A DNA stretch of 56,759 bases, counting the filler, from Dugesia japonica (taxonomy: Eukaryota): the NCBI GenBank assembly GCA_001938525.1. It is 5 parts of 5 records of this genome, joined end to end, with 100 filler letters (N's around TTAATTAATTAA, not from the genome) between each part and the next. Parts side by side here need not be neighbours in the genome. Positions count along the whole stretch, not along the records: positions 1 to 10,719 come from MQRL01496685.1; 4 more parts are not named here. One strand, given 5' to 3'. The position numbers and the translations under genes are program-made. This document shows, piece by piece, positions 1 to 44,189 of the stretch (position 1 is the stretch's first letter; every line of letters begins with the position of its first letter). The notes below the pieces were generated by a model. The model was not told the origin of the DNA. It was given only the letters and a program-made list of their open reading frames with translations, and did no database searches.

Positions 1-188
1 CCCGGTTCAAGTTTTTCTTCTTTATCATTAATTTTAAATTTATTATTTTCCACAGTGACATTAAAAATGATATTTTAACATGCAAAACATAATAACCCTA
101 ATTCATACTCTGCATCTAGTTCTATAGGATATTTTAAATGCATTCTTAAATTATTTTCTCTATTAACTATTAAGAATTGGTTTGACAT
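1..188 (-). pseudogene. Minor capsid protein (penton) N-terminus, truncated by window edge, one in-frame stop
   Basis: Manual translation from ATG at 188: MSNQFLIVNRENNLRMHLKYPIELDAEYELGLLCFAC*NIIFNVTVENNKFKINDKEEKLEPG. PIELD-x-YELGL...NV...NNKF...PG is the typical Polinton penton start. TAA at 75-77. Absent from the ORF track. Confidence 0.72.
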
Positions 189-355
189 TATGCTTGTTGC
201 TATTTATTATAAATAAAAATTATGCTTGCGTAGCAAGCTTTATTAATTACCAGTATTTAGGATTTAAATGTGTCACTCCATTACGATAAACCGTTTTGGG
301 AATGACACATTTAGGATTTAATATTTACATCTAAAGCCTGCTACGCAGACTAATT

Positions 356-940
356 TTATATTCCAAGTTTCACTTTCATTTCATTAATAACTTTTCTTAA
401 ATCTTCATCATCATTTTTCTTATTTTTTACATGTTTATTATTTGAAATTATTTCATGAACTTCATTAACCATATTTTTACTAATTGCTAATTCTTCATCA
501 GTTAANNNNNNNNNNNNNNNNNNNNNNNNNNNNNNNNNNNNNNNNNNNNNNNNNACAGCTTCAAGTTTTTTAATTAATTTTTCATATCTTTCTTTTCTTG
601 ATTTTATTACTGATGAATTTATTGTCCCTATTACAGGCAGGACTGAAATTGCCCCTGTCAAAATAGGAATCCCGATTGTTACCAAAGGCACTCCAACTGG
701 GGCGATCAATATGACACCGGCAATTCCAATCCCTGCACTAACAATTATTTGTGTAATTTTAATACTTGAATCAATTCTATTCCATCTTCTATGAATTTTT
801 TTATAATGATTAATTTTATCTTTTATAAAGTAAAGGTCATTCTCAAAATCTTTTATTCTAGATAATGCTAATTTATTTTTTAAATCTAAAATTGTATAGT
901 TTTTACTTTCATCAATATTCGGATATAAATTCTCACCCAT
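356..940 (-). CDS. Adintovirus GasderminX-like membrane protein
   Basis: 194 aa with a central Gly/Ala-rich hydrophobic hairpin (IIVSAGIGIAGVILIAPVGVPLVTIGIPILTGAISV) between charged helices, and a C-terminal LTDEE motif. Layout matches the conserved Polinton/adintovirus membrane ORF. Contains an N gap. Confidence 0.6.
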   Translation of the reverse strand: MGENLYPNIDESKNYTILDLKNKLALSRIKDFENDLYFIKDKINHYKKIHRRWNRIDSSIKITQIIVSAGIGIAGVILIAPVGVPLVTIGIPILTGAISVLPVIGTINSSVIKSRKERYEKLIKKLEAXXXXXXXXXXXXXXXXXLTDEELAISKNMVNEVHEIISNNKHVKNKKNDDEDLRKVINEMKVKLGI

Positions 941-957
941 TTTATATAGGTGAAAAA

Positions 958-1800
958 TTAACTATATGGAGGTATTAATGAAATAATAATTTCATGAATG
1001 TAATTATCTTTAGGAATCTCTATTTCAACAGAATTTGAAAACTTTGATTTTTTAATTCTTTTGTTTTTTAAATGAATACTTGATGTTATAAAAATAAAAT
1101 GATTTCTACTTTCTATAACTCGAAGAGGAACAAGTTCTTGTTTATTAACAAATAGATTAATTGTGGGTTTATAGCTAGGATATTTTCCATAACCTGTAAT
1201 TGTAAACCATAAAACCATCTCAAAAGTTCCAGTTATAATAATTTTTAAGGCATCTTCAAGATACCAATATGAAATCCCATTTTTAATTTTAAAAACTCCA
1301 TTTAATCTTGAAAATTCAATATTAGTAATTCTTATTTCTTGATAATTTTTAAAAGAATAAGATGGAAGTTTTGGATGTTGACTTGAATAAGTAAGACCAA
1401 ATATCATATAGAATTTACTTTTATTAGGAATTACCTTTTCCATTTCCATATATGGAAAATAATTATAAATTATTTGTTTTATTTTATATTTAGTTTGTTC
1501 AGATTTATTTTTTTTAAATTCTTGAATTAAACTATTAATTTTATTAATATTTGATTGATGGAAATCTTTTTTTATTTTTTCAAATTCAACAAGTGTAGGA
1601 TTAATATTTTTCTCAAAGAATTTAATTTTTGTTTTAAGTTCTTCAATGAGGGATATGGAATTTTGAAAAGTTTTTTCATCTAAATTATCAGGTAAAACAT
1701 TGACTTTATTTAATATTAACTTAATTTCTTCATTAAAATTTTTATTATTTCCTACTTCATTTAATTTTAATAATAAATCACTTTTATTATATTTTGGGGA

Positions 1801-1858
<58 letters not shown>

Positions 1859-2355
1859 GTTATTGTCTCAGTAGGTTTATTAGATGTAAAACTATCAATC
1901 TTTAAAGAAAGTTTAGAAAATAATAATTCATGAGTTTTTATTTTATCTTCTAAATTTTTAACATAATTTAAATTAACTGGATCAGTAGGTTTATTAGATG
2001 TAAAACTATCAATCTTTAAAGAAAGTTTAGAAAATAATAATTCATGAGTTTTTATTTTATCTTCTAATTTTTCTTCCAACTTATTATATTTTAAATCTTT
2101 AGAATCATCTTTTATTTTTAGAGTTGTTTTTTCAATTTCATTAATTTTATCTTCTAAATTTTTAATATATTTTAAATTAACTGCATCTTTTAAATCTTTA
2201 GGATCATCTTTTATTTTTAGAGTTGTTATTGAATCTCCAGTTTCATTAACAAATTTATTTTCATTTTTCACATCTGAAATTTTAAATTTTGCATCAACTT
2301 TCTTTAATATTTCTTTTGAATTTATTTTTTTACTAGTTTGACCAAATTTATTCAT
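958..2355 (-). CDS. Putative fibre/spike-like virion protein (coiled-coil repeats, poly-Asn, beta-rich C-terminal domain)
   Basis: 465-aa ORF. Repeated DPKDLKDAVNLKYI / DPVNLNYV resembles the D-A-V-N-x-x-Y-V fibre neck motif. Internal duplication of LEDKIKTHELLFSKLSLKIDSFTSNKPT. AAT microsatellite encodes poly-N. Confidence 0.45.
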
Positions 2356-2374
2356 CTTTACTATTTATTAATTA

Positions 2375-2821
2375 CTAATATTTAGATGCCACATTAACAT
2401 CTAATTTATCATACAAATTTTTCATCTCATTTATTATTTCCTCGAAATTATTATCTCGAATCTTGTATAAAAAATAAATGCATAAAATACCACAAATATT
2501 TGTACCAAAATGTTGAACTTGAATTTCATTATATTTCCTGGTATATTTAGCTATATTTTCCAAAGGTTTTAATCCAAAAGAATCAAAATAATATCCACTA
2601 CTATAGCATGTCCAATGTGTTCCTTTTTGATTTGAATTTTGATAATTAAAAATATAATAGGAAGGCTTGTCTTCCTTTTTTGATTCCATCAAATTAGGAA
2701 CCTCATTCTTCATATAAATTTCTAGATCCAAATTTAAAAAATCTGCTATTGAATATAAATCAAAATTTGTAGTTGTATTAATTCCAAATGTTTTTAAGAA
2801 ATCTAATAAATTATAATCCAT
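2375..2821 (-). CDS. Adenain/Ulp1-like cysteine maturation protease
   Basis: Catalytic His (GTHWT), Asp (YFDSFG), oxyanion Gln (QVQ) and Cys (ICG) in the order and spacing of Polinton proteases. Confidence 0.92.
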   Translation of the reverse strand: MDYNLLDFLKTFGINTTTNFDLYSIADFLNLDLEIYMKNEVPNLMESKKEDKPSYYIFNYQNSNQKGTHWTCYSSGYYFDSFGLKPLENIAKYTRKYNEIQVQHFGTNICGILCIYFLYKIRDNNFEEIINEMKNLYDKLDVNVASKY

Positions 2822-2871
2822 TTTATTTAAGATTTAATTTCCATCACGATTAATCGTATTGGAAATTTTAT

Positions 2872-2946
2872 TATAATAAATAGCATAATAAAGTAAGGAT
2901 AATAGCATAGTAAAGTAAGGATAATAGCATAGTAAAGTAAGGATAA
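2872..2946 (+). repeat. Tandem 22-bp repeat (ATAATAGCATAGTAAAGTAAGG) x~3.3 ending at an ATG
   Basis: Directly visible; the last unit runs into ATG 2946. Confidence 0.9.
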
Positions 2947-3233
2947 TGGAGAATCTTATTAGTTATTTAAATGAAGCTGTAATGGAAATATTATCACTCC
3001 CCCAAAGTGATGATGATTTTTTTTTTAAATATTTAAAGAATAATTTAATCAGTGCAATAAGACTTATTAGTCAAATGAAAATTACAATTAATCATAAAAA
3101 TAATTCTGGATCAGTATTTATAAATGAAGATAAAATTAAAATAAGTAAAAATGAAAATAAAATTAAAATAATAAGTAAAAATAAAAAACGTAAAAATAAA
3201 ATAAATTTTGGATCAATATTTGAAAATGAATAA
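2946..3233 (+). CDS. Viral hypothetical protein, paralogue of the N-terminus of ORF 5625
   Basis: 95-aa ORF. ENLISYLNEAVMEI...FFKYLKNNL aligns ungapped with ENLINNLHDAIMEI...FFRNLQYNL. Confidence 0.6.
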   Translation: MENLISYLNEAVMEILSLPQSDDDFFFKYLKNNLISAIRLISQMKITINHKNNSGSVFINEDKIKISKNENKIKIISKNKKRKNKINFGSIFENE

Positions 3234-3291
3234 TTGTTCCCGCACACCGGCGTCTCGGAACAAAAGTATAATTAAATTATTTCTATAGAAA

Positions 3292-3906
3292 ATGGAAGTA
3301 ATAATGGACATGTTAAAAAAAATAAAACAAATGTTAAAAACGAAAAAATATGATAAAATAAAAATGAATGAATTAACTAAAGAAGTTAAAATTATACTTC
3401 AAATAATTGAAGAACTTAATCAAAATAATAATATGGCCAATCAAAATAATAATATGGCCAATCAAAATAATAATATGGCCAATCAAAATAATAATATGGC
3501 CAGTCAAAATAATATGGCCAGTCAAAATAATAATATGGCCAGTCAAAATACCCCAGTTACTGAAAGTATAATTCGTGAAGGTGTATTATTATCTGAATCC
3601 GAATCTGAAATTAGTTATTATGAGTCAGATTCAGATTTAGATTTAAATTTACCAAATGTACCCGCTACACCACTTGATATTGTAAAAAAACCAAGAATAG
3701 CTATTAAAGATAAAGATAATATACAATTATTAAGAAATAACTTTGAATATATTCATATTGAAAATTCATCCGTTCCTCAAATTGAAGAACCAAAATTTAA
3801 AATACCACATAAACTTACTTTAATGGATTTACCATTAGAACCATGTAAGAATGAGATGACTACACGAAAAACTTTTATTAAATCGGGAAAAATAAGAAGA
3901 ACATAA
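3292..3906 (+). CDS. Viral hypothetical protein with (NQNNNMA)n repeats
   Basis: 204-aa ORF preceded by TTCTATAGAAAATG; 21-bp coding tandem repeat at ~3418-3550. Confidence 0.7.
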   Translation: MEVIMDMLKKIKQMLKTKKYDKIKMNELTKEVKIILQIIEELNQNNNMANQNNNMANQNNNMANQNNNMASQNNMASQNNNMASQNTPVTESIIREGVLLSESESEISYYESDSDLDLNLPNVPATPLDIVKKPRIAIKDKDNIQLLRNNFEYIHIENSSVPQIEEPKFKIPHKLTLMDLPLEPCKNEMTTRKTFIKSGKIRRT

Positions 3907-3909
3907 GAA

Positions 3910-4767
3910 GTGGATAATGAAGATCAAGTGTCATTACAAGCAACTCAACAATCATTTAAATGGGAATTAATTCAATCATTTAGTGCTAATAGATGTGGTG
4001 GTGTTACTAATGAAAAATTAAAAATAGAAAATTATAGAGAACATTGTGCTTTTTACTTAACTCAAGATGAATGGTGTTTAATGATGCAATATAAAGAATG
4101 GGCAGCCCAATTGGCCAAATGTAAACAGGGTACATTAATTTCATATGCCCAATTGGGATCAATTTTCTATGCATTGAAACTAAAATTTTTTAATTTGACA
4201 AATAAGAGATTTAATAGTGAAGCATTTTTGAATTTCATAGCAGGATTTAAAATCCACCACTCGATGAGCTATATAAATAGATTAATTAGATTTGCTCGAA
4301 TGGTGGAAAGATGGCCCGCACTTGTTAGATCTAGTTTTACATTTAAAAAAATTCAAGAACATTTTGCAGAAATTGAAGATATAATAGGAGATCATATGGA
4401 TGATGAAAACTTTCAATCTCTTGGTCAGTTGAAAAATGAATTTAAGAATTCAGATCCAAAGGTAATAAAATGGATTGAAGATAATAAAATTACAGATCAA
4501 AGAAATAGACATGTAGAAGATGAATATGATGATGATATTTATTTAGGTACTCCAGATGTGGTTACAGAAAGAGAATCTGAAACTAAAATTGAAGATGATG
4601 ATGAAAGTAATGATGATGATAAAGATAAAGATAAAAATAAAAGTAATGATGAAAGTAATGATGAAAGTAATGATAAAAGTAATGATGAAACAGAAACTGA
4701 TTCTGGATCAGAAATTGAAGATACAACAACTCCATTTACAGATGAACAATTAACATTATTTGATTAA
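3910..4767 (+). CDS. Viral hypothetical protein (helical domain plus acidic tail)
   Basis: 285-codon open frame (GTG at 3910; first ATG at 4081). Complex non-repetitive core (SYINRLIRFARMVERWPAL) and Asp/Glu-rich tail. Confidence 0.7.
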   Translation: MDNEDQVSLQATQQSFKWELIQSFSANRCGGVTNEKLKIENYREHCAFYLTQDEWCLMMQYKEWAAQLAKCKQGTLISYAQLGSIFYALKLKFFNLTNKRFNSEAFLNFIAGFKIHHSMSYINRLIRFARMVERWPALVRSSFTFKKIQEHFAEIEDIIGDHMDDENFQSLGQLKNEFKNSDPKVIKWIEDNKITDQRNRHVEDEYDDDIYLGTPDVVTERESETKIEDDDESNDDDKDKDKNKSNDESNDESNDKSNDETETDSGSEIEDTTTPFTDEQLTLFD

Positions 4768-4808
4768 TTATTTAGCCATTTAATTTTAAAGTTTAATTTT
4801 ACATTAGT

Positions 4809-5561
4809 TTAGAATAAGTCATCAAGTAATTCATCTGATTCTTTATTTAAAAAAAAGTAATTATACTTTGTCTTCCAGTGAAGATTAACTTCATGATCAT
4901 ACTCTAACTTATTATTAAAAATATTTGAAAATAATTCATGATAAACGTTATCTCTATCGGTTTTATTTAATTTAAAAAATATGTAACAATTAGAATTATT
5001 TCTGATAGAGTTTTTATCCAGATGATAATAAGTTTGAGAAATATAAATCACATTACAATTTGAATGACGTCCACGGGTAAAATAACTTTTTTGTATCTCT
5101 TGATTTTTCTCATTAACAACGTCATCAAAAATAATTAAATTTTTCTTATCTTTAGAAAGTCTATCACAAGGAATAATTTCATTTGGTTTATTACTTAAAG
5201 TAACATTTATGGATCTTGATTTTTTAGTTATCATTTTTTTAGAAATATAAAAATCATAAACTTGATATGGAGTTAAGCAAGATTCAGGAACTAGATTTTG
5301 ATTTCGAAACATTGATGTTATTTCTTGTTTAGATAAACCATTTTCAAAACCAATATAAAGTAATTGAATTTCAAATTGATTTATCGTTGTAGAGTAAATA
5401 ATTAAATTATCATAATCTAGGAAATCGGGTGTTAGGAGCATTTTCATTAATAGTACATTTTTACCACAACCTGATGACCCTATAATTAATAATCTAAAAT
5501 TATTTGGAAGTATTTTATTATTAAATTTTGTTAAATTTTTAGTCCATATTAATTCAGTCAT
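4809..5561 (-). CDS. A32/FtsK-HerA family genome-packaging ATPase
   Basis: Walker A IIGSSGCGKN, Walker B LIIFDD, TRGRH arginine finger, ISQ sensor and IRNN motif. Confidence 0.93.
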   Translation of the reverse strand: MTELIWTKNLTKFNNKILPNNFRLLIIGSSGCGKNVLLMKMLLTPDFLDYDNLIIYSTTINQFEIQLLYIGFENGLSKQEITSMFRNQNLVPESCLTPYQVYDFYISKKMITKKSRSINVTLSNKPNEIIPCDRLSKDKKNLIIFDDVVNEKNQEIQKSYFTRGRHSNCNVIYISQTYYHLDKNSIRNNSNCYIFFKLNKTDRDNVYHELFSNIFNNKLEYDHEVNLHWKTKYNYFFLNKESDELLDDLF

Positions 5562-5624
5562 TATGTCACTATACTATTTATTATAATAATAATATTAACA
5601 TGTTTAAAATTTAATTATAGAAAA

Positions 5625-6258
5625 ATGCCAGGATTATTTAAAATAGAAAATCTTATTAATAATTTACATGATGCTATTATGGAAATAAAATTAAATATAA
5701 TAAGTAGTGATAGAGAATTTTTTAGAAATTTACAATATAATTTAGAAGACACATTACAAATTATGAAGTATATATCAGAAAATAAATGTGAATCAGAAAT
5801 TGCTATTAAGCATTTTAAGAATCTAGATATATATGGAAATGAAATTGAACCTGAAAAAATAAAATCTGAACCTGAAATTGAATCTGAACCTGAAATTGAA
5901 TCTGAAATTAAATCTGAAATTAAATCTGAAAAAATAAAATCTAAATCTGAATCTGAATCTGAATCTGAAATTGAATTTAAAAAAGTGTTTGAAAATATAA
6001 GTTCCAAAGTTGAAAAAATAAAATCTGAAAATATAAGTTCCAAAAATGAAAAAATAAAATCTGAACCTGAAATTGAATCTGAAAAAATAAAATCTGAATC
6101 TGAATCTGAATCTGAATCTGAATCTGATCTGAATCTAAATCTGAATCTGAATTTGAATCTGAATATGAAATTAAAAAAATAAAACCATTAACAGAATTGG
6201 GTAAAAAATTAATTCAAAGAGGAAAAATAAATAAGAAAGTGATGATAAAATTTTAGCA
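5625..6258 (+). CDS. Viral hypothetical protein with ESE/KIKSE low-complexity region; probable 1-nt frameshift near 6127
   Basis: The GAATCT hexamer run loses one A at ~6127, giving NLNLNL. Restoring it reads ...SESEFESEYEIKKIKPLTELGKKLIQRGKINKKVMIKF*. Preceded by TTATAGAAAAATG. Confidence 0.6.
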
Positions 6259-6318
6259 TCTTATGAATCAAAACAATTAACGAAGAATGTATTAAAAGTG
6301 AGTCATCCATGACCTATA

Positions 6319-7197
6319 TTAATAATTAGTTTTCTGTAATTCATTAGAATAAAGTCTTCCAATAATTTCTTCACCACTTAAATGACTGACTTGGTATGTG
6401 TATGGTTTTGTTTTATAAATTTTTGTAAGAATATAAATTCTCTTTGACCATTTTAAAGTATAACTCTTTGGAAATGTTTTCTTGATAATAAAAATTCTTA
6501 CTCGATCTCCAATCTTAAATTTTGGTTTTTCCTTTAAATCATAATTTTCAGTCATATTTTTTTCATTCTGAATCCGGATAATTTCTGGATTTTTTGTTGC
6601 CGCCTGGGGTGTTTCTTTTATTGATGAATGGATGGTATTGTTGTAATCATTTACAATTTCTTTTAATAGTTCAGATGTAATATCTTGATTTCCAACGGCA
6701 GTAAAATGTTTAAAGAGTCTATTTTTAAGGGTACGGTTAAATCTTTCAATAACTACTGCTTTACCTTCATTTTCTGTTGAATATAAATTTATTTGATTTT
6801 CATCACAAAAAGATTTAAAATGTTTATTATAAAATTCAGTTCCCTTATCTACCCATAAATTATTTGGAACTCTATGAGTATCATTTAAACTTTTACGAAA
6901 TGCATTTGTTACATTTACTCCAGTTTTCTTTTTAAAATTCTCAATAAAAGCATAACGAGTATAAAGATCAATTACTGTTAATATTACCCATTTATTTTTT
7001 CTTTCAATTCCATGGAAAATTAAATCAGCTGACCAAATATCATCTTTATTATGAACTACTACTTTTAGAAAATGTTTTGGTTTTCTATATTCATGATGTA
7101 ATTCATTAACAAGATTTTTATTATTATTGGGAACTGTATTATTATTATTGTTGGGATCAAATGAGGGGACTTCGTCCCCAGATTCATTAACAGTATC
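6319..7197 (-). CDS. Polinton-type retroviral-like (rve, DDE) integrase; C-terminal part of a PLA2-integrase fusion
   Basis: Uninterrupted 292-codon frame: ELHHEYRKPKHFLKVVVHNKDDIWSADL...VIDLYTRYA...LWVDKGTEFYN...KAVVIERFNRTLK...YNNTIHSSIKETP...FKIGDRVRI. D-D-E triad intact. No Met until 6555, so the ORF track shows only the last 78 aa. Confidence 0.93.
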   Translation of the reverse strand, partial: DTVNESGDEVPSFDPNNNNNTVPNNNKNLVNELHHEYRKPKHFLKVVVHNKDDIWSADLIFHGIERKNKWVILTVIDLYTRYAFIENFKKKTGVNVTNAFRKSLNDTHRVPNNLWVDKGTEFYNKHFKSFCDENQINLYSTENEGKAVVIERFNRTLKNRLFKHFTAVGNQDITSELLKEIVNDYNNTIHSSIKETPQAATKNPEIIRIQNEKNMTENYDLKEKPKFKIGDRVRIFIIKKTFPKSYTLKWSKRIYILTKIYKTKPYTYQVSHLSGEEIIGRLYSNELQKTNY

Positions 7198-7738
7198 CTA
7201 TTAATAACACTCTTTCTAATAGATTGTCCAATTATTATTTTACCTTTCATTGCTAATTTTACAAGAGCTCTTTGTATTTTTCACTGATAGTTGGATTAGG
7301 AATATTATTTAAATCATGAATCAAATTTACATCAGCAATATGACGATCGCGTATATCGTTAGATGAATAAGCAATGTCATGTTGCAATGCTGCAGCATCA
7401 ACTTGATTAATTGGTTCTTCTCCAGGTTTTGGATTATTATTTTCATCAAGTCTCAAATCTAATCTAGTTCCTGGTCCAGTGTAATTATGTTTAAATAAAT
7501 GTCTTTCACCTGGATATTTTTCTGTAGTAAATGGTTTTAATAATGTTGATGTTAACTTACTAGATTGAAGATCTCCTCCTTTATGAGGGCCTCCTTTATG
7601 GGTTTTAGGATATGGTTTCTGTTTCACATTATTTAAACATAAATCTAAATGTCTCGATCTATTTTTCATCTTTATAATTTTACCACAATTATCGCACATG
7701 TATTTTTTGTACTTGGGTACACCTGAAGGATGTGCCAT
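7198..7738 (-). CDS. C2HC zinc-finger-like motif + parvovirus-VP1-type phospholipase A2 domain
   Basis: CDNC-x11-H-x3-C, Ca-binding loop HNYTGPG and catalytic DAAALQHDIAY...AD. After a 1-nt shift at ~7271 it continues RALVKLAMKGKIIIG, the usual tail of this PLA2 family. Confidence 0.88.
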
Positions 7739-7927
7739 TTATTAATTGTTAAATTTAATATAAGGATAAAAATTTTACATTTGACATTTTATAATAAATA
7801 ATTGGTCCACGTAGTGGGTCTTTTGGGTCCCTTTGGGGTTAAAGTTTAATTTTACATTTTAATTTTAAATATTAACATTTGACATTTGGGTAAAACATAG
7901 CTTGCTTCGCAATCTTTTATTTATTTC

Positions 7928-9238
7928 TTATTTAATATAAACTCCCTTTAAATTATCAATCATAACAATTCTACCATTTGATAATCTCATTTCAACATGT
8001 TTCTCTTCAAGAATGCACCAATATAAACTTCCTTGGAATTGGGGATCTTTTGTAATATTTAAAGTTACATCAACATTATTAACTGATAATTTTTCATCTT
8101 GTGCACTGACATCAAAACAAAACATTGGATATAAATTTTTAAAATCCATTAATGATACTTGAGGTTCACATAAAAATTCTCTACAACAATTGACATAATT
8201 CATATAAGGGAAAATCATTTCATTATTAACCAAATTAAATTTACATTCATTAGCAGGATAATTTGTATTATTTAATGTTAACTGAATACTGTTAATATAA
8301 TGATAAGTTGTAACTTTTTCTTTTTTATCATTTTCTTTAGTTATGCTAGATCTTTGTATAAATAAATTATTATTCTTTTCAAATGAACTATCAGTTTCTT
8401 TTATGCAAATAAAAATATATCTTGGTCTATATGGTAAACTTGTTAATTTTATTGCACATCTTCCTCCTTGTGGTAAATNNNNNNNNNNNNNNNNNNNNNN
8501 NNNNNNNNNNNNNNNNNNNNNNNNNNNNNNNNNNNNNNNNNNNNNNNNNNNNNNNNNNNNNNNNNNNNNNNNNNNNNNNNNNNNNNNNNNNNNNNNNNNN
8601 NNNNNNNNNNNNNNNNNNNNNNNNNNNNNNNNNNNNNNNNNNNNNNNNNNNNNNNNNNNNNNNNNNCGATTACATTTTAATTCAATCATTGTATTGTATA
8701 CTACTCTATTATAATTTTGTAAAAATCCAAATAAATTTCTTAATGGGAAGTAACCTTCGAATTTTTTACTTTCATAAAGTTTTCTTCGATTATAATAACC
8801 AAGATTACAGTCCCAAGATGTTACATCAGTATTTCCTTTATTAACATCGGGTAACCATCCAGATAATTGTCCATATTCTTTTTTCCATGTTTCNNNNNNN
8901 NNNNNNNNNNNNNNNNNNNNNNAAATTGTTCCTGGTTCATAAATAGTTTCCACATCTGATGACCCTAATTTTAATGTAATATTTTTGAATAAATTTGGGA
9001 AAAAATTATTTTCTAAGGTGATTTTTGCTGGATCTGAGGGGGTGATTTCAATTGTAAAATATAACATCGAATTACAGATATCCAGTGCATTTGATGATTG
9101 CAGGGATTGGAAAATAATATCTCCCGATGTCATTAAATGATTAATCGATCCTGATGAGGGTGAAATTTTAAGGATATCATTTTTTACTAATGGATGTGTA
9201 AATTCAATATTATTATCTAACTCAATCTTTGATCCCAT
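7928..9238 (-). CDS. Double-jelly-roll major capsid protein (hexon-like)
   Basis: ~436 aa with N gaps. Motifs LENNFFPNLFKNITLKLG, PLRNLFGF, RPRYIFI, LNNTNYP and FKNLYPMFCFDVSAQ are typical of Polinton MCPs. Confidence 0.85.
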   Translation of the reverse strand: MGSKIELDNNIEFTHPLVKNDILKISPSSGSINHLMTSGDIIFQSLQSSNALDICNSMLYFTIEITPSDPAKITLENNFFPNLFKNITLKLGSSDVETIYEPGTIXXXXXXXXXXETWKKEYGQLSGWLPDVNKGNTDVTSWDCNLGYYNRRKLYESKKFEGYFPLRNLFGFLQNYNRVVYNTMIELKCNXXXXXXXXXXXXXXXXXXXXXXXXXXXXXXXXXXXXXXXXXXXXXXXXXXXXXXXXXXXXXXXXLPQGGRCAIKLTSLPYRPRYIFICIKETDSSFEKNNNLFIQRSSITKENDKKEKVTTYHYINSIQLTLNNTNYPANECKFNLVNNEMIFPYMNYVNCCREFLCEPQVSLMDFKNLYPMFCFDVSAQDEKLSVNNVDVTLNITKDPQFQGSLYWCILEEKHVEMRLSNGRIVMIDNLKGVYIK

Positions 9239-9273
9239 TTTCTATAGATAAAATTTAGAACTGAAATTATTAT

Positions 9274-9412
9274 CGTTACTGTATCCTTACCATTACTTTA
9301 CCATTACTTTACCATTACTTTACCATTACCTTACCTTACCTTACGTTACCTTAACCTTACCTTAACCTTACTGTAACCTTACTGTAACCTTACCATAACC
9401 TTACCTTACTGT
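9274..9412 (-). repeat. Degenerate (TTACC/TTACT)-based tandem array upstream of the MCP gene
   Basis: TTTACCATTAC x3, then CTTAC / ACCTTA / CTTACTGTAAC units. Confidence 0.85.
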
Positions 9413-9696
9413 AATGCTTTTTTCATATTAATAAATAAATTATCATAATTTTTAACACCAGAATTATTTTTAATGGTATTTAAATTTTTCATTGACTCTT
9501 TTTTTTCAAATCGATCAATTGAGGAAATAAAACTGCCATGTGAATTTCTTTGCAAATTTCTGGATGGATTTCACGATCTGGTATTGTATTCAATTTCCCA
9601 TTTTTTCAAATATTTTTTTACCGTTTTTTCATTAATGTTATTAGCTTTACAAAAAGCACTTATTGAATTATTTTTAAAATTATAATCATTTAACAT
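9406..9696 (-). pseudogene. Small HTH-like protein with an in-frame TGA
   Basis: MLNDYNFKNNSISAFCKANNINEKTVKKYLKKWEIEYNTRS*NPSRNLQRNSHGSF...MKKALQ*. HTH-like pattern; TGA at 9571-9573, then the frame stays open for 54 codons. Confidence 0.5.
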
Positions 9697-9723
9697 TTTA
9701 TAAAATACTGAATTTGCATCCAT

Positions 9724-10332
9724 TTATTTATGTTTTAATTTGGCATATGCTCTATCAATTCCAGTTAATTCTTTTTTGGCTTGTATTCGAGTATATTTAT
9801 TTTGTGATAAATCATTCATATTTAAATTCTTAGTTAAATTATTAAAAAGTTTTGCAGTTAAATATGGATTTTTATTTTTTGGATTAATATGGCATACTAT
9901 GTCAATATCATCAATTATTACTGGTTTTGTTTGTTCACCCAATCTTAATAAAGCTTGATTATGTTCATCTCGTTCTCTTTGTAAAATTTCTTGACATCTT
10001 TGAAGAGATTTTTTTAATTCATTATTTTGTTCTGCATATAATTGAAGTAATAAACCTCTACTATCACTTTCAGTATATTTTGTAACAAGAACAGTCATTA
10101 TTTTTTTAAACATTTTATTATTCTCTTCTGGTAAGTCTAAATCCTCTAATTTTTTATATAATGCTTCAATATAATTTAAATAAGATTCTGCAATTTCTTT
10201 TGTTAAACTATTATTTAAATATTCTTTTATTTCTGATAAATTAATCTCTTCTATATTATCAAAATTTTTTATTGAATTTATTACTGTAACTAATGTTAAC
10301 TCACTAACAACTTTTTCTTTATCGGCACTCAT
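9724..10332 (-). CDS. Viral hypothetical coiled-coil protein
   Basis: 202-aa ORF preceded by CCCTATAGAAAATG. Confidence 0.7.
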   Translation of the reverse strand: MSADKEKVVSELTLVTVINSIKNFDNIEEINLSEIKEYLNNSLTKEIAESYLNYIEALYKKLEDLDLPEENNKMFKKIMTVLVTKYTESDSRGLLLQLYAEQNNELKKSLQRCQEILQRERDEHNQALLRLGEQTKPVIIDDIDIVCHINPKNKNPYLTAKLFNNLTKNLNMNDLSQNKYTRIQAKKELTGIDRAYAKLKHK

Positions 10333-10371
10333 TTTCTATAGGGAAAATTTAAGAAATTTTATTTTTCATGA

Positions 10372-10472
10372 TTTCAGAATTTTTATTTTTATTTTCAGAT
10401 TATTTTTTATTTTCAGATTATTTTTTATTTTTATTTTTATTTCAGATTATTTTTTATTTTCAGATTATTTTC
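10372..10472 (+). repeat. TTCAGATTATTTTTTATT-like tandem repeats
   Basis: About five TTCAGA(A/T)T units separated by T-tracts. Confidence 0.75.
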
Positions 10473-10719
10473 ACCGGATAGGATTTTGTTATCTGGATTA
10501 TTACTTTTAAAACGGGGGGGGGTCAAAATGCTGTTTTTTTAATTTATGATTTATTTTTAGTTTTTCTTTGTTTTTTAAAGTAATTTAATGTAGTATGGTG
10601 TTATTGGGTATGTAAAATGTGAAATGTATAAAATATGGGTAGGGTACGGTAAATAAAATTAATATTTAATTTAATTTTATTTTTTGGTTTTTTAATTATT
10701 TTTAATTATTTCTTGATTT

Positions 10720-10920: not shown

Positions 10921-13900
10921 ATGGGAAGTTTATTTAGAAGTGAGGAAATGACACTTTGTCAGTTATTTTTGCATACTGACTCTGCCTATTCTTGTATTTC
11001 TCAGTTGGGCGAACTGGGGGCTATGGAATTCATTGATGTAAATTTTAAAATTCTTCAATCATTTTATATGCATTTTTTCAGACAATTCCAGAGACTAACG
11101 CTTTTCAAAGAAAATTTGTAAATGAAGTTAGGCGTTGTGATGAAATGGAACGCAAACTAAGTTACCAATTAACATTAATTATTTTTTTTAAATAGTTCTT
11201 CAGGATATCTAGAAAAAGAAATTAACTTGGATGTAATTCCGATTCTGGATACAGGAGATAACCCACCAGCCCCTGAGCCCCGAGAAATAATTGATTTAGA
11301 AACTAATTTAGAGGGCATAGAAGAAGATTTAAAAGAAATAAATCATAATTATGAACAATTGAGAAAAAATTATTTTGAACTTATAGAACTTCACTACTTA
11401 TTGCAAAAAACAAAAGTGTTTTTTGAGGGGGTTAGATTTATATTGCTTTTAGTAAATCCAAATTTTTGTGCTTTGGTGTTTTTATAGGGTGTTGAATCCC
11501 GATTATTACAAGATCACGATCCTAATAGCGATGATAAAGAATCTGTCATGGTTGAAAATTCTAATATGAGGTGATTTTAATAATTTTAATTTCCTCAAAA
11601 TGATTATCCCCTATTATAATAAATAATAATTATTGTAACTACATCTTATACAGGATTCTGATTCATTAATGATATCAGTTGGTTCTGTCACTGAAAATAC
11701 GGAAATTTATAAAATGGAAGATAGATTACTTGAACATAGATTAGTAGATACAAATAAGGACAATTATAAAGTAGAGTGAGTTATCTTTATCTCAAAATGA
11801 AGTTTGAATTAAAAATTTTATTTTGTGTTAATTAATAATTTTCTATATTTGAATCAACATTTGAAGTTTTTTGAGATAATTTTAAAATAGTGATAATTAA
11901 AAATACGAGTTCTAACAAAATAAAATTATGTAATGCCAATTATGATATGGGTTTCCATTGGCAATATTGTGTAATAATTGTGCTAAGAAAGCGCAAATAT
12001 ATTTTTGTAAAATTTTATGATATTTTTTAATAATGCAGATTCATATCTGGAGTTATTCTAAGAGAAAAGATCCCAGGATTTGAACGAATGCTTTGGAGAG
12101 TCTGTCGTGGAAACGTTCTTATTAAGTTCAATGAAATTGAAGTAGACCTTGAAGATTTAACAACAGTTTATTAATTTTGTAATTGGTATAATTAAATATA
12201 AATTTTAGACAAATAAAAAAGTTAAAAAATCAGTTTTCGTGGTGTTTTTTCAAGGTGAACAGTTACATCTTCGCGTGAAAAGGATATGTGAAGCGTAATA
12301 TATTAAATGTTTTTTCGTATTTATTAAAACACCAAATAGGTATCATGCAACGATTTATCCTTGTACAGACAACCCAAATGAAAGTAAAGACATGATTCGA
12401 AATGTTATGACTCGAATGGAAGAATTAAAGAAAGTAATTGATCAAACTGAAAGTCACCGGCATAATGTTTTGATAACAGCTGCAAAACATATTAGAATAT
12501 GGTTCATTAAAATTCGTAAAATCAAAGCAATTTATCATATTCTTAACCTCTTCAATGTTAATGTGACAGATAAATGTATGATTGGAGAATGTTGGTGTCC
12601 AGTTAATGATATTGAAGCCATTTATGCTGCACTTCGTCTTGGAATGGAGAAAAGTAACGGAACAATTCAACCTATTTTAAACCGATTAGGGGATAATGTC
12701 AAAAAGTCTTTTCCACCAACATTTAATCGAGTAAATAAGTTCACATCTGCATTCCAAAACATTGTTGACGCATATGGAGTTGCTAATTATAGAGAAGTGA
12801 ACCCAGCACCATACACTGTGATAACTTTTCCATTTCTATTTGCTATAATGTTTGGGGATTGCGGCCATGGGTTGATTATGTTTTTATTTGCTTTAATAAT
12901 CATCCTAAGAGAAAGAAGTCTACTTAAACAAAAATCTGATAACGAGATTTGGAATATATTTTTCGGGGGTCGCTATATAATTTTGTTAATGGGTATTTTC
13001 TCAATATATACCGGATTGATTTACAATGACGTCTTTTCTAAATCTTTTAATATTTTCGGTACAAATTGGTATCCTGGAAACTATTCATTATCTGATATTG
13101 ATTCAAGTCCCGAATTACAGCTTAATCCAGGTAATTCAACTGTTTTTCTCGACCACCCATATCCATTTGGAATTGATCCAATCTGGCAACTGGCAAAAAA
13201 CAAAATCACATTTACAAACTCTTTGAAAATGAAAATGAGTATCATTTTTGGAATTTTTCAAATGATGTTTGGTGTAATATTGAGTCTGATTAATCAATGG
13301 TAAAAACATATTGATTTAATTATATTGATTTGAAAATTTAAATTTTTTTAGCTATTTCAAAGATTATCTTAGTATTCTCACTGAATTTATTCCACAAGTT
13401 TTATTTCTACTAGCGATTTTCGGATACTTGGTCGTTGAGATTTTCATAAAATGGGTTACATATACAGCAACTATGTCACACTGTGCACCATCACTTCTAA
13501 TTGGTCTTATCAATATGTTTATGTTCACGAAATCTGATGAAACCACTATCCCATGTTCAAATAGACCATTATTTAATGTAAGTTTTTCTATGATCATTTC
13601 TTCATATGCATTCATTCATTTAATTAAACTTTTCATATTATTAATAATGTTTGATAACTCAATAGGGTTTTGGAGTTTAAGGTGGAATTTTANNNNNNNN
13701 NNNNNNNNNNNNNNNNNTACCTTCGGCAGAAATTTAATTAATAATAATGCTTAATACAACAAATAATATCATTCAATATTCAAATTTATTGTTGATCATT
13801 TTCTGAGGTTGAGATATTTTTTCTAAATAATTTCTAGTTTAAAACGAATATTTTCCATAGCAATGAATTACTAGATTTTGTGCAGAAATTCAGGAATTAT

Positions 13901-14956
13901 AATTCAAAAAAGATAGTCCGAGCTAAATAAGTCAGTGTTTTTTGTTCAGGGATACAAATATTTAGTTTGCGTTTTGTAATTGGTGAAATAAGGAATATAC
14001 AGCAGGAATACAAACTGTTGTTTCCTTGGTATTTCCGGTTTAAAAAATGTTAAAATATGGAGCCGTAATAGAATTTCCGCTCATCTATAATGCAATATTA
14101 CATAAAAATTTATATAAAATATGGAAACATCAATAATTATTATTTTGATATTTTATTTTAGTCGCAATTTGAAGTTCAAAGCGCGCTTGTTGTTATCGCT
14201 GTGATTTGTATTCCGTGGATGCTAATTATCAAACCAGTGGTTTTAATGGTATCGCATTCGAAAAAACACAAAGTAATTCTTTTGAGTGAATAATTAGTTT
14301 TACAGGAATTATTTTTTTACAGAAAAGATCACAATCCACTTTATTATTAGATCCTGGTCATATAAATGACGGTGCTGATATTGATCATTCATTAAAGAAT
14401 CCNNNNNNNNNNNNNNNNNNNNNNNNNNNNNNNNNNNNNNNNNNNNNNNNNNNNNNNNNNNNNNNNNNNNNNNNNNNNNNNNNNNNNNNNNNNNNNNNNT
14501 TACCATATAAAATATTTAGTTCGAAATGGGTGAAGTCTTTGTTCATCAATGTATTCATACAATTGAATATTGTCTTGGTTGCATTTCAAATACAGCATCT
14601 TACTTACGATTATGGGCTCTTAGTTTGGCTCATGCCCGTTAGTTATATTATTGTAATTTGTTGAATTAGTATAATTCTGTTTGTTTTTAGAGTTGTCTGA
14701 AGTTTTATGGCAAATGGTACTCAGTATTGGACTTAAACAAAGCAGCTTAGGTGGATCAATAATTTTGTTTTTTGTATTCGCAGCTTGGGCGGTATTAACA
14801 ATTGCGGTACTTTTATTAATGGAAGGATTATCGGCATTTTTACATGCTCTTCGTTTACATTGGGTTGAATTCCAAAACAAATTTTACAAAGGTGAAGGTT
14901 ACAAATTCAATCCGTTCAATTTCAAGGGTGTCGATGATTTAAGTTTAGATATATAA
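10921..14956 (+). CDS. ATP6V0A: V-type proton ATPase 116-kDa subunit a (multi-exon host gene)
   Basis: [59 protein letters not shown]...[20 protein letters not shown] (essential Arg), [23 protein letters not shown] introns at 11038-11081, 11161-11203, 11431-11487, 11571-12038, 12166-12208, 12295-12339, 13300-13351, 13578-14161 and 14638-14690; exons near the 14.4-kb gap are uncertain. Confidence 0.97.
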
Positions 14957-38399: not shown

Positions 38400-39168
38400 G
38401 AGATACAGACGGGTGAACGATTGAGACATGCAATGGAGATTCTAGAAATTAACAAAGATCATAGATTAACTGTGATTATTCAGAATAACGAAAACGTATT
38501 TATGGCGGATAAATGGGACATTGGATGCACACATTTAACGAAGCATTGAATAATCACTAAGGGAGGTAAAATAAAAATAAAATCGTATCGTCAAACAATG
38601 AATATAGAAGAAGAAGAAGAAGAATCTATATGATAATGGTATCATCCGAAAGTATAGTTCTCAATGGAATACGCCATTAATCTGCGTTTGGTAAAAGAAA
38701 AAAGGATATACAATTATGCTCAGACTTTAGACAGTTTCATACAATAACAGAAAGACAAGCTTTTCCTATGCCAAATGTGGACGAAATGCTGGTTCCTGTG
38801 GAAGGTACGCAGTATTTTAGCTCAATAGACTTGGGAAATGCATACTACCAAGTGGAACTCAGTGAAGATTCTCAAGAAAAGACAGCTTTTTCGAACAAAC
38901 CAGGGCAATTTTGTTTCAATAGAATGCCTTTTGGAATTGCAGCAGCACCAGGTACGTTACTGGAAATTATGAATAAAGTAATCGGAAAAATAAAAGGAGT
39001 GATGGTTTATCTAGACGATACTCTCATGTTTACCGAAACAAAGGAGCAATACTATGAAATAATCAATAGAGTATTAATAGAAATTAAGAAGGCCGGTCTT
39101 AGAGTTAATCCGGAGAAATGTCAATTCATGCGAAAGGAGATCAAATTTTTGGGACACGTTATCAGTAA
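38400..39168 (+). pseudogene. Ty3/Gypsy reverse transcriptase fragment
   Basis: FSSIDLGNAYYQV, KTAF, RMPFGI, VYLDD, EKCQF...FLGHVIS; disrupted upstream. Confidence 0.92.
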
Positions 39169-39457
39169 NNNNNNNNNNNNNNNNNNNNNNNNNNNNNNNN
39201 NNNNNNNNNNNNTTAATTAATTAANNNNNNNNNNNNNNNNNNNNNNNNNNNNNNNNNNNNNNNNNNNNATTTTACTTTACTTTTATGAAATATTATTTTT
39301 GATTATTTTATTTTATGGTGAACATTTTATTTATTCAAATGTGAACATTTTGTTGTTTAATTATTTTATTATTTTTACTTTATTTTTATGAAATATTATT
39401 TAAGCTTCTGAAAATTGTTGTAAAAATTTTGTAAAGAAAATAAATAAAATAGCGTAT

Positions 39458-42991: not shown

Positions 42992-43505
42992 TTTTATGTG
43001 GAGAGGAGGGGGGGGTTACCATTTTTTCGTCTAACAAATTGCATTAGAGAAAACCCCAACTAATTGCACTGTGCCAGTGCTGTACTAACTACCGAATGCT
43101 AAAAAGGTTTTCGACTCAAAAGACGCAAACTTTTCTTTGAAAAAAATGGAATTTACAAATTTGTGTTCTGTTTGGAAAGTGTTTTTCATTATAACGGTGA
43201 TTATTTAGATGAACAAGATCTTATTATTTGACTTGAATTTCACAGTTTATTGGAGGAAAACTGCACTAACTTTCGGATTTACCTGATAATTTCCAAAGAA
43301 AATAATTGTAAACCAACCCGTATTGTTTATTTATGTGAAATTATAGAGTTGTGATATTATTGTAACTGTAGATGAATACTACCTGTTAGTAATTCACTAA
43401 CCAAAATGTCATTCTGTTATCACGAGCACTCCAAATAATGTGGATAAAAATTAGAGTTTTTTGTTAAAATAATATTTATTTAGCTATTTATTTTATATCA
43501 TTTCA

Positions 43506-43917
43506 AATCGACTCGTTTCTTTCTTGTTAGCAATTCATATTTCCTAGTAGAAATGAACCAATCAGTTTGATTGCACTCATTTGTTCGTTTATACAGCGAG
43601 GGTGCCAAATTGACTCGTTTATTTCTTGTTAGCAATTCATATTTCCTAGTAGAAATGAGCCAATCAGTTTGATTGCACTCATTTGTTCGTTTATACAGCG
43701 AGGGTGCCAAATTGACTCGTTTATTTCTTGTTAGCAATTCATATTTCCTAGTAGAAATGAACCAATCAGTTTGATTGCACTTATTTGTTCGTCCATTTAG
43801 CGAGGGTGCCAAATTGACTCGTTTATTTCTTGTTAGCAATTCATATTTCCTAGTAGAAATGAACCAATCAGTTTGATTGCACTCATTTGTTCGTCCATTT
43901 AGCGAGGGTGCCAAATT
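43506..43917. repeat. 102-bp tandem repeat x4
   Basis: GACTCGTTT recurs at 43510, 43612, 43714 and 43816; copies are near-identical. Confidence 0.95.
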
Positions 43918-44189
43918 GGACGAGTACAACAGGAGGTGTGGAAATATGATAATTGTGCGTGCGAAATATTCTGATTCTGAGTTATAAATAACAATAATTA
44001 TCAAAGGTGTAAGGTAAATTGTAAATTTACAGTTAAACAACCCTAACCCCCCCCCGCCTAAAGTTACCATGGAGAATCTAATGAAATCTTTGTTGAATGG
44101 AGATGGAATAAGAAAGAAATAATCAAATGGGATAACATAAAATATTTATTTCAATAATAATAAATGCAAAATGGGCTCGCGGGAACCTC

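Follow-up and report, generated by a model that had tools for sequence, protein, structure and literature searches.

A damaged PLA2-integrase fusion gene in a Maverick/Polinton-type stretch of Dugesia japonica DNA

The gene at positions 7738-6319 (minus strand) of a Maverick/Polinton-type stretch of Dugesia japonica is a damaged copy of a genuine gene fusion that joins a phospholipase A2 (PLA2) to an integrase. Positions count along the window, by which we mean the whole stretch of DNA analysed, 56,759 nucleotides of assembly GCA_001938525.1 with filler included, in which several contigs are strung together by runs of N. A preliminary description of the window had reported a PLA2-integrase fusion split by two frameshifts, and we confirm that observation. 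Judged from its relatives, the gene is by descent a single ORF with the order variable zinc module, GG, parvovirus-type PLA2, GxG, linker and rve integrase. We hold with high confidence that the best explanation of the whole is a Maverick/Polinton-type copy in which an ancestral single-ORF fusion was broken by copy- or allele-specific damage.

Anatomy of the gene

The 5' piece (7259..7738, minus strand) encodes 159 aa, comprising a zinc finger-like N-terminus and a parvovirus-type PLA2 that ends early in this copy; the stop of the PLA2 ORF at 7259 is where it had been placed originally. This ORF is hit by the Pfam PF08398 with E=1.6e-9, above the cut-off, and tblastn aligns it at 61% identity to residues 3-140 of P0001, a natural 463-aa single-ORF protein that served as reference for three frames of the window. 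The PLA2 signature residues (7331..7483, minus strand), namely the calcium-loop GPG motif, D-x-HD-x-x-Y and a downstream Asp, are all intact, and the ORF has both hallmarks of the parvovirus type, the calcium-loop GPG and HDxxY.

The 3' piece (6319..7197, minus strand) has 292 codons covering the linker, the rve integrase core and the C-terminal domain (PF00665 E=1.4e-10, above the cut-off), and is 55% identical to P0001 198-463. All three residues of the DDE triad are present (D 7035-7021, D 6855-6841 and E 6753-6736, minus strand). The sequence bears out the earlier remark that this frame has no start codon: TAA TAG at 7203-7198 lies directly upstream of it, and its first Met sits downstream of all three catalytic residues. 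No chromodomain (PF00385) was found, and the integrase frame stops right past the integrase C-terminal domain.

Between these pieces lies the shifted frame that had been proposed to join them, and it is not a chance reading: its segment 7227..7280 (minus strand), encoding the last PLA2 helix and a conserved Gly after it, is identical at 17 of 18 positions to P0001 135-152, between the two other P0001 matches. We identify the segment as the last PLA2 helix because of this match and because the P0001 structure model has a helix at 132-151. The full open extent of the bridging frame is 7280-7065 (minus strand), and besides P0001 five more of the 13 protein queries match it. The Gly after PLA2 reads G-Q-S in the window, and GxG or GG in most relatives. 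Because P0001 matches all three frames in order, we take them, from PLA2 ORF through bridging frame to start-less integrase frame, as a single gene with two breaks. That PLA2 and integrase make a single fused protein also agrees with the closest relatives, which are single ORFs of 430-530 aa.

The first break, a frameshift seen as a tblastn frame switch, maps to 7277..7287 (minus strand), within a short run of A's or next to it, where the last PLA2 helix begins. The second (7198..7203, minus strand) falls in a variable linker, where two stops close the integrase frame upstream. The preliminary description had put the second break near 7200, which fits our placement at about 7198, and the first at about 7271, which must be moved slightly upstream, since homology to the bridging frame starts at 7280. 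A copy cut by these two frameshifts would make a truncated PLA2 only and no integrase, a presumed loss of function.

N-terminal zinc module

A C-x2-C-x11-H-x3-C pattern is seen in the sequence at 7637..7696 (minus strand), so that the extra N-terminal C2HC finger reported earlier exists as a pattern; as a type for the family it fails, C2HC occurring in none of 155 fused relatives. Most of these have no zinc module at all. A C2H2 finger is found in 9/44 and 7/111 of the fused relatives in our first and second sets, and a C4 ribbon of the DUF5679 type in 1/44 and 27/111. The zinc module is a variable appendage of the family, and the pattern in the window is probably a variant or decayed form of its lineage's C2H2 finger.

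Host element

The first contig (positions 1-10719) is, by its gene content, the morphogenesis module of a Maverick/Polinton with all genes on the minus strand. A double jelly-roll capsid gene lies at 7928..9241 (minus strand); its PF21738 match is gapped and below the cut-off (E=3.5e-5), and its product is 43-47% identical to the capsids of the related locus L008 and 36-45% to those of L014. It matches the capsid of L045 weakly, and the L045 capsid itself scores 7e-56 with PF21738. An A32/FtsK-type packaging ATPase (4809..5573, minus strand; PF04665 E=1.7e-10) is 44-49% identical to the ATPases of L010, L012, L014 and L017. An adenovirus-type (Ulp1-family) cysteine protease, the presumed processing enzyme, is encoded at 2375..2833 (minus strand) with a PF00770 match of E=0.008, below the cut-off, and 32-37% identity to ORFs beside the integrase in L007, L011 and L017. 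A small two-helix membrane protein (356..961, minus strand) is 31% identical to an L020 ORF; by eye only, it resembles the 'Slatt' gene listed for Adinto6405 (see below).

Capsid, A32/FtsK ATPase, adenovirus-type protease and rve integrase with DDE are together the genes that place the contig in Maverick/Polinton (Polintoviricetes). Matches to pPolB and penton were absent from the 10.7-kb contig, which ends in gaps; the fusion-bearing relative L045 has both. No pair of terminal inverted repeats was found within 1-10719, and the element ends may lie off the contig. Buck et al. 2024 define adintoviruses by an integrase with a C-terminal chromodomain, and since the integrase of the window ends without one, the window stands outside that strict definition; a chromodomain is present in other fused relatives and missing in Adinto6405.

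Plus-strand ORFs inside the element (3289-4767 and 5553-6182 on the plus strand, and 2928-3233) encode acidic or Asn-rich repeats; they gave no convincing Pfam match and no homolog among the fetched loci. Short tandem repeat arrays occur at 9263-9431 and 10381-10471, near the right end of the element.

Other features of the window

A V-ATPase subunit a gene with several exons spans 11179-14956 on the second contig; its score is 427 bits with mammalian chains, 280 with plant ones and 219 with those of yeast, which points to an animal host. Fragments resembling the reverse transcriptase and integrase of LTR retroelements were noted by eye at 38681-39220, 48045-50649 and 52759-53097, the integrase piece being weakly matched. 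At 43402-44013 about five units of 102 bases stand in tandem, with an open frame on the minus strand, and there is an imperfect repeat cluster built on the palindrome TGACTCA/TGAGTCA at 55328-55559.

Relatives of the fusion

The PLA2-integrase fusion is widespread among relatives. PF08398 and PF00665 occur together in 11 of 33 longer homologs of the PLA2 ORF and in 27 of the best 150 representatives, three of these being doubtful or in reverse order. A profile search returned 1280 proteins at E<=1e-60; both families are present in 114 of its best 120 matches, several of them on megabase contigs and in clusters of >100 members, and a separate domain test found 111/111 new profile matches fused. 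The searches were seeded with fused proteins and therefore favour fused forms. ESM Atlas clusters of 184, 111 and 72 members with rve and PLA2 (scores 0.82-0.85) serve as leads only. Catalytic motifs are well kept in the fused relatives, HDxxY in 110/111 and the DDE-like motif in 108/111. The structure model of P0001 (pLDDT 87, pTM 0.60) is confident within domains and of low confidence at the joints; in Foldseek it matches foamy-virus, MELD-virus and mavirus integrases, and with the whole model the matches listed comprise only integrases and transposases, the PLA2 fold not being confirmed structurally.

Because protein sets cannot show frameshifted forms, DNA was tested too. Both domains are found in 25 of 44 JGI loci. 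PLA2 and integrase are separate distant genes in three of the 25, and adjacent in the remaining 22. Among the adjacent loci, 13 are open between the domains, five have one stop at scattered places, and four are frameshifted. With L045 added to these 22, the linker is continuous in 20 of 23 adjacent-domain loci, and the last PLA2 helix lies in one frame in 30 of the 31 loci covering it. L045 is a complete element in which pPolB, capsid, penton and ATPase are all present; its fusion gene reads C4 ribbon, PLA2, integrase, chromodomain with one frameshift. A rearranged fragment, L029 (600-760), has two frameshifts at places equivalent to those of the window. A scan of viral contigs with the window integrase alone gave 12 stretches, none of which was confirmed; with the alignment as query it gave one locus.

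A quick integrase tree, made without bootstrap, gathers 33 of the 37 fused rows into a single clade of 49 rows (SH-aLRT 94), the other four falling elsewhere; it omits cluster mates and rows with <200 profile columns, and the 'solo' rows include fragments. It has 16 label changes with 63 of 156 branches open, and so the fusion may have had more than one origin. P0139 is a fusion in reverse order (integrase, chromodomain, PLA2) and may be an independent one. The 'PLA2-like' proteins of the limpet Lottia gigantea (P0005-P0025) look like mis-spliced models of this fusion: of 19 Lottia PLA2 models, three continue into the integrase start and one into the integrase C-terminal domain.

The two breaks in host DNA

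Three DNA runs of one organism were compared over a 1.7-kb stretch, which was matched by 8,800-9,790 contigs in each run, mostly at 90-95% identity; with so many matches the stretch must be part of a large repeated family, and summed contig depth is not copy number. At 7281, 37, 38 and 32 contigs of the three runs are clipped, and the continuation of these sibling contigs departs from the register of the window. Depth in run X1 is about 35,000 at 7277 and has dropped to about 1,700 by 7287. None of the 24 contig pieces listed (there are 27,902 further ones) bridges the first break free of differences, so this break could be an assembly error in the A-run.

For the second break, one contig of run X3 equals the window over 7087-7241 with 0 differences, at depth 17.7. 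Contigs lacking the break account for a depth of 25 out of 42.7 in X3 and of 33.5 out of 46.9 in X4; run X1 has no depth there. Given the matching X3 contig together with the contigs that do not share the break, the second break is real in DNA and polymorphic among near-identical contigs of X3 and X4. The breaks are not common to sibling DNA, as is seen from the clipping at the first and the polymorphism at the second. In the linker bin depth is about 500-650, compared with about 100,000 in its neighbour; many sibling contigs leave the linker out. Across 6250-7950 the depth peaks over the PLA2 core are far higher than those over the integrase, perhaps a sign of many PLA2-only derivatives. A single RNA run (X22) gave 69 reads, none at >=99% identity and 66 of them partial fits, and is uninformative on expression of the window copy. 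On these comparisons both frameshifts appear as copy- or allele-specific damage of the -1 type.

A possible objection is that both breaks are assembly or sequencing errors and the genomic copy is intact. The homopolymer run at the first break, the assembly gaps of the contig and the high repetition of the family (about 9,000 contigs per DNA run) all speak for this, but the X3 contig spans the second break with no difference and no gap over 155 bases, at least 41 on each side. That match is less independent than it looks, because X3 might be the source sample; even so we consider the objection improbable. Still less probable is a cryptic intron over both breaks that would yield a shorter in-frame fusion. 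Frame arithmetic on splice-like dinucleotides does offer GT-AG pairs that span both breaks and preserve frame; such a splice, however, would remove the last conserved PLA2 helix or helices, the very segment that is nearly identical to P0001, no joints were seen in run X22 (with none of its 69 reads reaching 99% identity), and intact vertebrate Mavericks are described as intron-free (PMC8097293, in the part covered). The least probable reading of all is that PLA2 and integrase are two separate genes and the fusion mere adjacency. Separate genes do occur in the more distant relatives L032, L033 and L038, stand-alone PLA2 ORFs in L031, L034-L037 and L041, and in reference adintoviruses PLA2X and integrase are apart. 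The integrase frame, though, lacks a Met ahead of its catalytic core, the nearest relatives form a 24-row clade of 21 fused rows and three short fragments (SH-aLRT 99), and the conservation of the bridging frame in the P0001 match largely refutes this reading.

Programmed recoding had been left open in the preliminary description on account of a GC-rich hairpin. Under this reading two -1 ribosomal frameshifts in succession, stimulated by the hairpin, would yield mostly stand-alone PLA2 and a small amount of the full-length fusion; we rate it very unlikely, between the assembly objection and the intron. The hairpin is there: the 6-bp stem at 7165..7179 is the only perfect GC-rich one in the window (0 of 100 local contig shuffles), with a folding z-score of only -1.9 (8 of 200 shuffles equally stable). 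A part in recoding finds no support, the hairpin being private to few copies, absent from all 15 relatives' linkers examined, and unaccompanied by a slippery heptamer: there are 0 strict ones (X XXY YYZ) at either junction, the three loose ones are all downstream of the hairpin, leaving no slip site upstream of it, and the first junction has no 3' structure (z=+1.05). It is true that both shifts in the window are of the -1 type, as are all 10 mapped frameshifts (window, L006, L019, L023, L029 and L045), and that for other adintovirus genes Buck et al. (PMC11071296, in the part covered) have predicted slippage of the -1 type. Four of the 10, however, in L019 and L023, fall within the integrase; L029, broken at places equivalent to those of the window, is a rearranged fragment whose siblings in the same metagenome are continuous. 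The one linker shift of L006 does come with a strict slippery heptamer and is open into the integrase, but this heptamer is unremarkable because intact ORFs of these A-rich genes hold 5-7 strict heptamers per ~470 codons. Against recoding stand also the continuity of 20/23 loci across the linker and of 30/31 across the last PLA2 helix, and the absence of the second break from contigs near-identical to the window copy's private linker region. Recurrence of GC-rich palindromes across the family found no support, with four in 137,895 bases against 0-3 in each of 10 shuffles.

Glycine motifs flanking PLA2

Returning to the fusion as the ancestral state, two diglycine motifs precede PLA2 in the window (7574..7594, minus strand) and are candidate sites for the maturation protease. 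In relatives a GG or GxG follows directly after PLA2 in 37/44 proteins of the first set and 106/111 of the second, against backgrounds of 3/1450 and 7/4053 seven-residue windows; within 30 aa before PLA2 such a motif is found in 17/21 and 65/71 relatives, against a background of 4/319. These counts come from related sequences and hence are not independent, and the set of 44 was obtained by leaving out 13 of 57 rows (nine near-duplicates, three truncated overlaps and one in reverse order). The motifs on both sides of PLA2 are new here, and by their sequence they match the specificity of the mavirus protease, reported to cut GG|X and GX|G (PMC6048507, in the part covered). According to the same source, mavirus virions hold integrase and a cleaved hydrolase, and Polinton lipases have been proposed to be packaged for entry (PMC4642659, in the part covered).

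Because GG/GxG motifs flank PLA2, together with this protease specificity and virion content and the proposed packaging of Polinton lipases, we favour, with some reserve, the view that in intact relatives the fusion protein works as a virion core polyprotein that is processed by protease and delivers PLA2 and integrase. Its PLA2 part, presumed to be a capsid-packaged entry enzyme in Mavericks, would bring the integrase into the particle; the adenain/Ulp1 protease of the element would cut the GG and GxG sites at maturation; PLA2 would then breach the endosome, and the integrase would follow the genome to the nucleus. The flanking motifs add support to the virion packaging and the membrane breaching that we infer. 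Stand-alone PLA2X proteins end in the same GG/GxG motif, so the motif may be inherited or structural and not used in the fusion.

Discussion

The fusion is already annotated, and, as far as the sources go, little discussed. Supplementary file 2 of Buck et al. 2024 (PMC11071296), in the part covered, labels two proteins 'Adinto15303_PLA2-Integrase' and 'Adinto6405_PLA2-integrase', from Adintovirus sediment15303 (GenBank BK066759) and Adintovirus nemertoderma6405 (BK066529); the main text has 0 occurrences of PLA2. Among 30 of the 59 'PLA2' places in that file, at least four are labelled PLA2X-Adenain, and Adintoc3-PLA2X is labelled as well. The literature searched, which left aside subscription journals, Repbase and parts of supplements, gave no account of the fusion, of how widely it occurs or of how it is processed. 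Like the window, Adinto6405 and Adinto15303 have PLA2 and then an rve integrase, in their case in one ORF, with glycine motifs on both sides by eye; Adinto6405 likewise ends without a chromodomain, and its gene list of hexon, PacK, adenain, Slatt and Cah parallels the contig. The window differs in being broken twice and in its N-terminal zinc module, which both lack, and the pPolB and penton of Adinto6405 were not found on the window contig. Sharing their collinear order of PLA2 then rve and lacking their single ORF, the window gene is a broken derivative of this type of fusion, not a working member.

The PLA2X of Alpha adintoviruses and group 2 Maverick-Polintons resembles the window in its PF08398 domain, its intact catalytic motifs and the capsid-ATPase-protease module beside it (PMC8502044, 10.64898/2026.06.19.733378 and PMC5803895, each in the part covered), and like the fusion family it has a GxG closing the domain. 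In the account of Starrett et al. (PMC8502044, in the part covered), PLA2X and integrase are two distinct genes. There PLA2X runs into a pX-like tail, whereas here the integrase sits in the place of that tail; in the fusion relatives the integrase N-terminal region has shrunk to a short linker with a median of 16 aa.

The mavirus virion, with rve integrase, a lipase-like hydrolase and an Ulp1-type protease in the particle (PMC6048507, in the part covered), is like the model proposed for the fusion; it differs in that these are separate genes, in that the hydrolase is of the alpha/beta type, and in its protist host. The PLA2 of the parvovirus VP1 unique region is a homologous domain (PF08398), cited in PMC4642659 and PMC5803895 (in the parts covered) as acting in endosomal escape. 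Its fusion partner is a capsid protein instead of an integrase, and solved parvovirus capsids were matched weakly (E=0.53). Virions of animal Maverick-Polintons have not been observed, according to 10.64898/2026.06.19.733378 and PMC8097293 in the parts covered.

A broader parallel is with retroviruses. There the integrase reaches the particle as part of Gag-Pol, joined to a virion protein, and is freed by the viral protease; Gag-Pol itself is made by frameshifting or read-through. The PLA2-integrase differs in its unrelated carrier and protease, and frameshifting or read-through is without support here. It seems to us as easily right as wrong that a large branch of Maverick/Polintons packages its integrase in a retrovirus-like way with unrelated parts, behind PLA2 and freed by adenain at GG/GxG; the same even balance holds for the idea, part of the same reading, that PLA2 in the fusion replaces the integrase N-terminal region.

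The broken copy in D. japonica is ordinary decay; it is the polyprotein model at the level of the family that is worth following. Annotators should take warning: many fusion proteins go under no better name than 'transposase' or 'hypothetical', and in the limpet the gene models splice them wrongly. With the integrase coupled to a presumed virion entry enzyme that lies between protease-type sites, this widespread gene offers a direct biochemical handle on integrase delivery. If true, the retrovirus-like packaging would be evidence, at the level of sequence, that elements of this kind in animals make particles and integrate upon entry.
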